A DNA stretch of 8,303 nucleotides from assembly GCF_003334255.1 (NCBI RefSeq), contig NZ_QOWU01000092.1; one strand, written 5' to 3'. The translations under genes and the position numbers were made by a program. The notes under the pieces are model-generated. The model saw only the letters and a program-made list of their open reading frames with translations, was not told the origin of the DNA and searched no databases. The stretch is from Escherichia coli (lineage in GTDB: Bacteria > Pseudomonadota > Gammaproteobacteria > Enterobacterales > Enterobacteriaceae). Positions 7,555-7,620 of the stretch are shown here, in pieces; the stretch's first letter is position 1, and each line of letters begins with the position of its first letter.

Positions 7555-7620
7555 TTGACGTAATTTTGCTTTTCTCTCGTTAGAATAGCGCGCACAAGGA
7601 ACTGTGAAAAAGGAGTGGCA
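7555..7620 (+). promoter_or_regulatory. dgcZ promoter/leader region with candidate CsrA-binding GGA motifs
   Basis: TTGACG (7555-7560) and TAGAAT (7581-7586) resemble -35/-10 hexamers, but the spacing is 20 bp, so the promoter assignment is uncertain. The leader contains ACAAGGA (7594-7600) and the Shine-Dalgarno AGGAG (7611-7615), both GGA motifs. dgcZ (ydeH) mRNA is a reported CsrA target. Confidence 0.4.

Follow-up and report, generated by a model that had tools for sequence, protein, structure and literature searches.

Leaders repressed by CsrA, such as those of glgC, pgaA, cstA, and nhaR, carry several CsrA sites, one of which lies over the Shine-Dalgarno sequence. The leader of dgcZ (ydeH, b1535) in Escherichia coli K-12 is organized likewise, with one GGA in a loop and one GGA on the Shine-Dalgarno sequence, but it is shorter (29 nt) and has two sites only, compared with six in pgaA and four in glgC. 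The promoter and the CsrA-controlled leader of this gene are already known, and both its repression by CsrA and its Cpx-linked activation are established. We took the binding and the effects of CsrA, the control by Cpx, and the transcription start site from the literature. Direct binding of CsrA to the dgcZ mRNA is credited to Jonas et al. (2008) in the passages of later papers that cite this work (PMC4066749, PMC8262984, PMC5694010). Ribosome profiling and RNA-stability profiling revealed that the translation efficiency and the stability of dgcZ are CsrA dependent. In K-12, ydeH mRNA was present at 217 units in the wild type versus 4,753 in csrA51, a change of about 22-fold, and a leaderless ydeH promoter-lacZ fusion increased only 1.34-fold with the change in CsrA (Esquerre et al., 2016). 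In an EPEC study (2026) with fusions designed from the RegulonDB annotation, dgcZ-cat fusions including the CsrA sites showed little or no activity in every medium, whereas those without the sites were active. For dgcZ, RegulonDB gives two sites for CsrA and one each for CpxR and CysB (described in PMC13131220).

The window analyzed here (the whole stretch of 8,303 nt) is a chromosomal segment between two IS1 copies lying in the same orientation. Between the IS1 ends are the 3' fragment of ydfJ, then ydfI, ydfZ, rspR, ydfG, dcp, ydeJ, ydeI, and the first 606 nt of dgcZ, an order and annotation that are those of E. coli from ydfJ' to dgcZ'. Over its unique part (78-8226; 8,149 nt), the window has 3 mismatches to K-12 MG1655, which corresponds to 99.96% identity. 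The sequence-only reading had described the region upstream of the truncated dgcZ as intact, and indeed positions 7367-8226, which extend from the stop codon of ydeI to the border with IS1, show 0 differences (100% identity) relative to MG1655. The locus thus shares with K-12 dgcZ the same -10 element, start site, two GGA motifs, Shine-Dalgarno sequence, and ATG, and it differs by the IS1 after codon 202, which provides a new 3' part of the mRNA and of the protein. Positions 7555-7620 very probably hold the native core promoter of dgcZ (ydeH) and its mRNA leader of 29 nt, without change relative to E. coli K-12. From these elements a dgcZ'-IS1 transcript under CsrA and Cpx control is expected, encoding a 210-aa product devoid of c-di-GMP synthesis. 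In this reading, the identity to K-12, the positions of the motifs, the predicted hairpin, the conservation across species, and the loss of GGEEF come from our own analysis. The coordinates of the features are given in Table 1.

Table 1. Features of the dgcZ 5' region, of the truncated gene, and of the IS1 ends in the 8,303-nt window.
Feature	Position	Strand	Description and basis
IS1 right end (another copy)	1-77	+	Inserted in ydfJ; 100% match to annotated IS1 ends
TTGACG, -35-like hexamer	7555-7560	+	Exact-string search; 20 bp upstream of the -10 hexamer
GCAAAATTACGTCAA, CpxR-box-like candidate	7555-7569	-	GTAAA-N5-GTAAA with 2 mismatches; contains TTGACG
TAGAAT, -10 hexamer	7581-7586	+	Exact-string search; 5/6 match to TATAAT
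Transcription start	~G7592 (+/- ~2 nt)	+	Inferred from published construct design
dgcZ 5' untranslated leader	7592-7620	+	29 nt; carries both CsrA sites
5' hairpin, stem CACA/UGUG, hexaloop AGGAAC	7593-7606	+	Predicted in minimum-free-energy and centroid folds; GGA 7598-7600 in the loop
CsrA site 1, ACAAGGA	7594-7600	+	Exact-string search; GGA 7598-7600
CsrA site 2, Shine-Dalgarno AAGGAG	7610-7615	+	Exact-string search; GGA 7612-7614; 5 nt before ATG
dgcZ start codon ATG	7621	+	Exact-string search
Truncated dgcZ ORF	7621-8253	+	DgcZ residues 1-202 plus IS1-encoded GDAANLLI (8 aa), 210 aa; stop 8251-8253
IS1 left end	8227-8303	+	Terminal inverted repeat and start of insA; 100% match to annotated IS1A and IS1B copies

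The IS1 that enters dgcZ begins with GGTGATGCTGCC, has the same orientation as the gene, and is still incomplete where the stretch stops. Since exactly 77 nt of IS1 are present in direct orientation at each end, the window looks like a short-read contig ending at collapsed IS1 repeats, as in a k=77-type assembly. An NCBI draft contig (GCA_965136505.1) has the same sequence with 42 and 43 extra IS1 bases at its ends, and the dgcZ-IS1 junction is real sequence. Should both IS1 copies prove real and complete, the 8.1 kb from ydfJ' to dgcZ' would have the flanks of a composite transposon or of an interval prone to deletion. IS1 also interrupts ydfJ (78-469) here, at a site other than the one it occupies in strain 720632, which lies in the ydfJ-ydfI spacer (window-equivalent 516-523); this again points to a region prone to IS1 insertion.

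The start site could be placed using the constructs of Esquerre et al. (2016), whose ydeH fragment comprised the 421 nt upstream of the transcription start given by EcoCyc. Their reverse primer, MBO-197, maps to the window and ends at 7591, so that their promoter fragment extends 5 nt beyond TAGAAT. This distance identifies TAGAAT as the -10 element, and the hexamer has both the similarity to TATAAT and the spacing to the start (5 to 9 nt) of a sigma-70 promoter. The proposal that the true promoter might lie elsewhere was therefore not borne out. The hexamers TTGACG and TAGAAT were found at the positions proposed, with the non-canonical spacing also noted in the sequence-only reading (spacer 7561-7580), and TTGACG is too distant from the -10 element for a normal -35 role. 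A consensus scan of positions 7300-7700 revealed no canonical sigma-70 promoter with a 16- to 18-bp spacer and no terminators. RNA polymerase would thus start at about G7592 with TAGAAT as the -10 element, and for want of a usable -35 element at 16 to 18 bp the promoter would be weak alone and dependent on activation, for which published work credits CpxR. The poor -35 element fits the published Cpx control, in agreement with the earlier suggestion that the promoter may depend on an activator such as CpxR.

The leader shows the arrangement of a CsrA-controlled mRNA: a GGA in a hairpin loop with an A(N)GGA context, a second GGA over the Shine-Dalgarno sequence, and a distance of 14 nt between the two, which lies within the range of about 10 to 63 nt that a CsrA dimer is reported to bridge (Mercante et al., 2009). 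The ACARGGA motif, a SELEX-like core, has 3 occurrences when both strands of the 8.3-kb window are counted (16.6 kb), against 1.3 expected, and one of the three is in the leader. The predicted fold of the first 69 nt (7592-7660) had a z-score of -1.25, not significantly better than that of shuffled sequence, and an Rfam scan of the whole window gave no family match. According to their primers, the "minus CsrA sites" fusions of the EPEC study stop at 7593 and the "plus CsrA sites" fusions reach 7619, which places both CsrA sites in 7594-7619, a segment that holds exactly the two GGA motifs. The resemblance of ACAAGGA and of the GGA-containing Shine-Dalgarno sequence to CsrA motifs, already pointed out from the sequence, is thus upheld, since the positions are right, both motifs are within this RegulonDB/EPEC segment, and the K-12 sequence is a published direct target. 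One CsrA dimer would bridge the site in the hairpin loop and the Shine-Dalgarno site, and its binding would exclude the ribosome and expose the mRNA to decay, such that both the mRNA level and translation would drop.

The published evidence for Cpx control of dgcZ is mixed. The gene is a member of the RegulonDB Cpx regulon and of the Cpx iModulon, but it is absent from the direct targets in a CpxR ChIP-exo study. Copper induction was reported in the EPEC study (2026), where a short "CpxR box only" fusion was unresponsive to copper and the response needed DNA upstream of -75. With Cpx-regulated promoters (cpxP, degP, yebE, and others), dgcZ shares the assignment to the regulon and the iModulon, together with a promoter that has no usable -35 element. 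It differs from them in having no good GTAAA-N5-GTAAA box, the best candidate carrying two mismatches. This candidate, GCAAAATTACGTCAA, is the only CpxR-box-like sequence in the -75 to +2 fragment of the "CpxR box only" fusion (7517-7593, coordinates derived from the primer positions of the EPEC study), at about position -30. Matches to the CpxR box with two mismatches occur in the window at chance level (71 seen versus 68 expected), and for this reason we treat GCAAAATTACGTCAA as a candidate and a lead, and claim no CpxR site. Further upstream, in 7451-7544 (about -141 to -48), E. coli shares with E. albertii and E. whittamii conserved blocks such as AGAATTAAACACTTTTTT and TTTGTTTTAAATCAC..TGTTA.CT. 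Since the copper response in EPEC required DNA upstream of -75, these blocks may be the real activator sites, for CysB, CpxR, or another regulator.

Of the 5,426 complete E. coli genomes searched, 5,381 contain the 77-nt segment 7550-7626; the matching records number 5,383, and 5,045 of them reach an identity of at least 99%. Outside E. coli the comparison is shallow: in a scan of one genome per species restricted to the best 80 loci, full-length CZB-GGDEF DgcZ orthologs (at least 90% identity) were found only in E. coli, E. albertii, and E. whittamii, the other loci being unrelated GGDEF proteins with at most 41% identity. No ortholog from E. fergusonii, E. marmotae, or other Enterobacteriaceae was present among these 80 loci, and dgcZ is entirely absent from S. 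flexneri. In view of this absence and of the 99.96% identity to MG1655, we set aside a Shigella origin for the window. The alignment of four Escherichia lineages (E. coli, divergent E. coli, E. albertii, and E. whittamii) revealed that 86% of the leader positions (25/29) and 77% of those of the core promoter are invariant, compared with 47% in -141 to -48 and 11% in the far-upstream part. TAGAAT, the 20-bp spacing, AAGGAAC, and AAGGAGTGGCAATG (the Shine-Dalgarno GGA and its flanks) are invariant across the four lineages. TTGACG varies: the divergent E. coli has CTGACG, and both E. albertii and E. whittamii have TTGACA. The stem of the hairpin is weakened or partly kept in the latter two species, and no compensatory changes were found in the stem in the Escherichia alignment, so that covariation gives it no support.

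The sequence-only reading had also pointed out that these signals are kept in a broken gene. Their retention is uninformative, because the flanks are 100% identical to K-12, the segment is near-invariant in E. coli, and there has been no time for decay. With unchanged flanks and an insertion that is recent on the scale of sequence decay, the retained leader says nothing about selection. Judged from the sequence, the intact leader reflects a recent IS1 insertion and not preservation. The promoter and the leader are unchanged K-12 sequence, and their integrity is the default state and matters little. They are also identical in the EHEC O26 lineage, in which IS1 entered dgcZ independently and evidently earlier.

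IS1 enters 606 nt into the dgcZ coding sequence, after codon 202. In K-12 DgcZ, the GGEEF motif corresponds to residues 206-210, which places the cut three codons before the motif. The new stop codon is 25 nt inside the IS1 terminal repeat and 27 nt upstream of the start of insA. The CZB domain is complete (Pfam PF13682, residues 22-89, model positions 1-63 of 64), and residues 2-128 match the crystallized CZB construct 3T9O; the other PDB entries of DgcZ are 4H54 (full length) and 3TVK (GGDEF alone). The GGDEF domain is cut, with a Pfam match at residues 130-202 that covers model positions 2-76 of 161, under half of the domain, and the fragment carries 74 residues of this incomplete domain. 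An active diguanylate cyclase requires a complete GGDEF domain with a GG(D/E)EF motif, and the truncated ORF has neither. The substitution E208Q within GGEEF is the standard catalytically inactive mutation of DgcZ. The fragment had been predicted to be catalytically dead and to retain the CZB domain; translation against K-12, from which the loss of GGEEF is evident, and the complete Pfam match bear out both points. The untouched elements would drive a dgcZ'-IS1 transcript controlled by CsrA and Cpx, and its product would have a complete zinc-binding CZB domain and be unable to make c-di-GMP.

The exact dgcZ-IS1 junction is absent from the 5,426 complete E. coli genomes, and an exact-protein look-up revealed the exact 210-aa product on at least 10 draft contigs. 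Some draft contigs carry the identical junction on a haplotype about 1.3% diverged from the window, with SNPs at 7632 and 8037. A similar allele is the dgcZ::IS1 pseudogene of EHEC O26:H11, O111:H11, and O103 (e.g., strain 11368, NC_013361), in which IS1 has the same orientation, DgcZ is cut just before GGEEF, and the promoter and leader are identical. It differs from that of the window in that the insertion is 5 bp further downstream, the IS1 has about 92% identity over the junction query, and the chromosome is about 1.4% diverged. This EHEC clade comprises about 85 complete genomes with a divergent IS1 variant in dgcZ. At least three backgrounds have an IS1 within a 5-bp interval just before the GGEEF codons (8221-8231, with the junction of the window at 8226/8227). 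One is the K-12-like haplotype of the window and another is the ~1.3%-diverged haplotype, in which the junction is identical; in the third, the EHEC O26/O111/O103 clade, IS1 lies 5 bp downstream. Either this interval is a hot spot for insertion, or recombination has moved an allele.

Besides these two or three insertions within 5 bp, IS1 insertions are also numerous around this site. At least 12 distinct positions in the 1.04-kb ydeI-dgcZ interval (window-equivalent 7449-8490) are occupied by IS1 in complete E. coli genomes, and IS1 in the same orientation was found at 11 other positions, from -143 to dgcZ nt 870. Genomes with a nearby IS1 numbered 87 and 96 for two dgcZ segments versus 2 for dcp and 1 for ydfI, which were used as control chimeric queries; these counts are by genome and not by independent event, one IS1 orientation was sampled, and the orientation bias is an artifact of the query design. 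IS1 prefers AT-rich targets. The GC content is 35% in the ydeI-dgcZ intergenic region, 45% in dgcZ, and about 50% in the neighboring genes, and the AT-rich interval fits this preference. Insertions also fall within the control region itself. In ETEC O6:H16 strains (e.g., M9682-C1), IS1 lies between TTGACG and TAGAAT (window-equivalent 7558-7568) with dgcZ intact downstream. This variant could reveal whether there is a role for TTGACG or for the CpxR-like box, or whether a hybrid -35 element is provided by the end of IS1. In E. coli O10:H32 NMBU-W12E19, an IS5-family element is inserted in the dgcZ leader, between ACAAGG and the final A of CsrA site 1 (~7599/7600), and parts the native promoter and CsrA site 1 from the Shine-Dalgarno sequence, dgcZ being otherwise intact.

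Other explanations can be given for the promoter and the leader. TTGACG could be the true -35 element acting over a long spacer, as in promoters of the MerR type, with an activator bound in the spacer and untwisting the DNA. Such a promoter is attractive, since dgcZ is reported to be copper inducible and DgcZ binds zinc, and it would agree with the invariant spacing in the four Escherichia lineages and with the perfect TTGACA of E. albertii and E. whittamii. However, the spacer has no dyad-symmetric operator, and the sole inverted repeats in 7540-7625 are two 6-nt palindromes, AATATT and GCGCGC, both outside it. Moreover, the published copper response is ascribed to CpxAR and, in EPEC, requires the DNA upstream of -75. 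We consider this type of promoter very unlikely and rejected it because of the missing dyad. As for the leader, the two GGA motifs could be a strong Shine-Dalgarno sequence and a chance match upstream of it, with CsrA acting indirectly through transcription. Every AGGAG Shine-Dalgarno sequence includes a GGA, and transcriptional effects of CsrA are stressed by Esquerre et al. (2016), whose ydeH promoter fusion did respond. Yet that response is far smaller than the effect on the mRNA, ACARGGA is rare in the window, both motifs are invariant across species, and direct binding has been published, as reported by the citing papers, for the identical sequence. Indirect control is hardly credible in view of this, and we retain the reading in which CsrA binds the two sites of the leader directly.

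A third alternative concerns the fate of the truncated allele. The signals may be intact and irrelevant, dgcZ being a dead pseudogene whose transcript and 210-aa product are quickly degraded, so that no regulated CZB fragment exists in the cell. What is kept of the GGDEF domain is less than half of the model and may not fold, transcription must enter IS1 with a stop codon inside the terminal repeat, and equivalent alleles are pseudogenes in the RefSeq annotation. A transcript running into IS1, or the partial GGDEF domain, could cause a fast turnover of the mRNA or of the protein. Against this, the promoter, the ribosome-binding site, and the first 202 codons are unchanged, the ORF closes at a normal stop codon, and the CZB domain folds on its own. 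A dead pseudogene is quite possible, if slightly on the doubtful side. Considering that the 5' region is unchanged, we infer that any product would still be under CsrA and Cpx control, and it is reasonable to suppose that the CsrA-regulated expression of the 210-aa fragment continues. In our reading, we only infer that the truncated allele continues to be expressed under regulation and yields a product that lasts. In all three backgrounds with the 5-bp cluster, the CsrA/Cpx-controlled promoter, the leader, and the CZB domain stay intact. That the cluster reflects more than an IS1 hot spot, with repeated selection for a regulated CZB protein without cyclase (e.g., one that buffers or senses zinc or HOCl, or that binds a partner) rather than simple gene loss, is nevertheless very improbable.

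Under the reading of an unchanged promoter and leader, the pseudogene should stay transcribed and translated under CsrA and Cpx control in dgcZ::IS1 strains, including the EHEC O26 lineage. Cells in which CsrA is titrated, or which are under envelope stress, may then contain a fragment with the CZB domain. Moreover, the clustering of IS1 in ydeI-dgcZ could bear on the remodeling of c-di-GMP signaling in pathogenic lineages.
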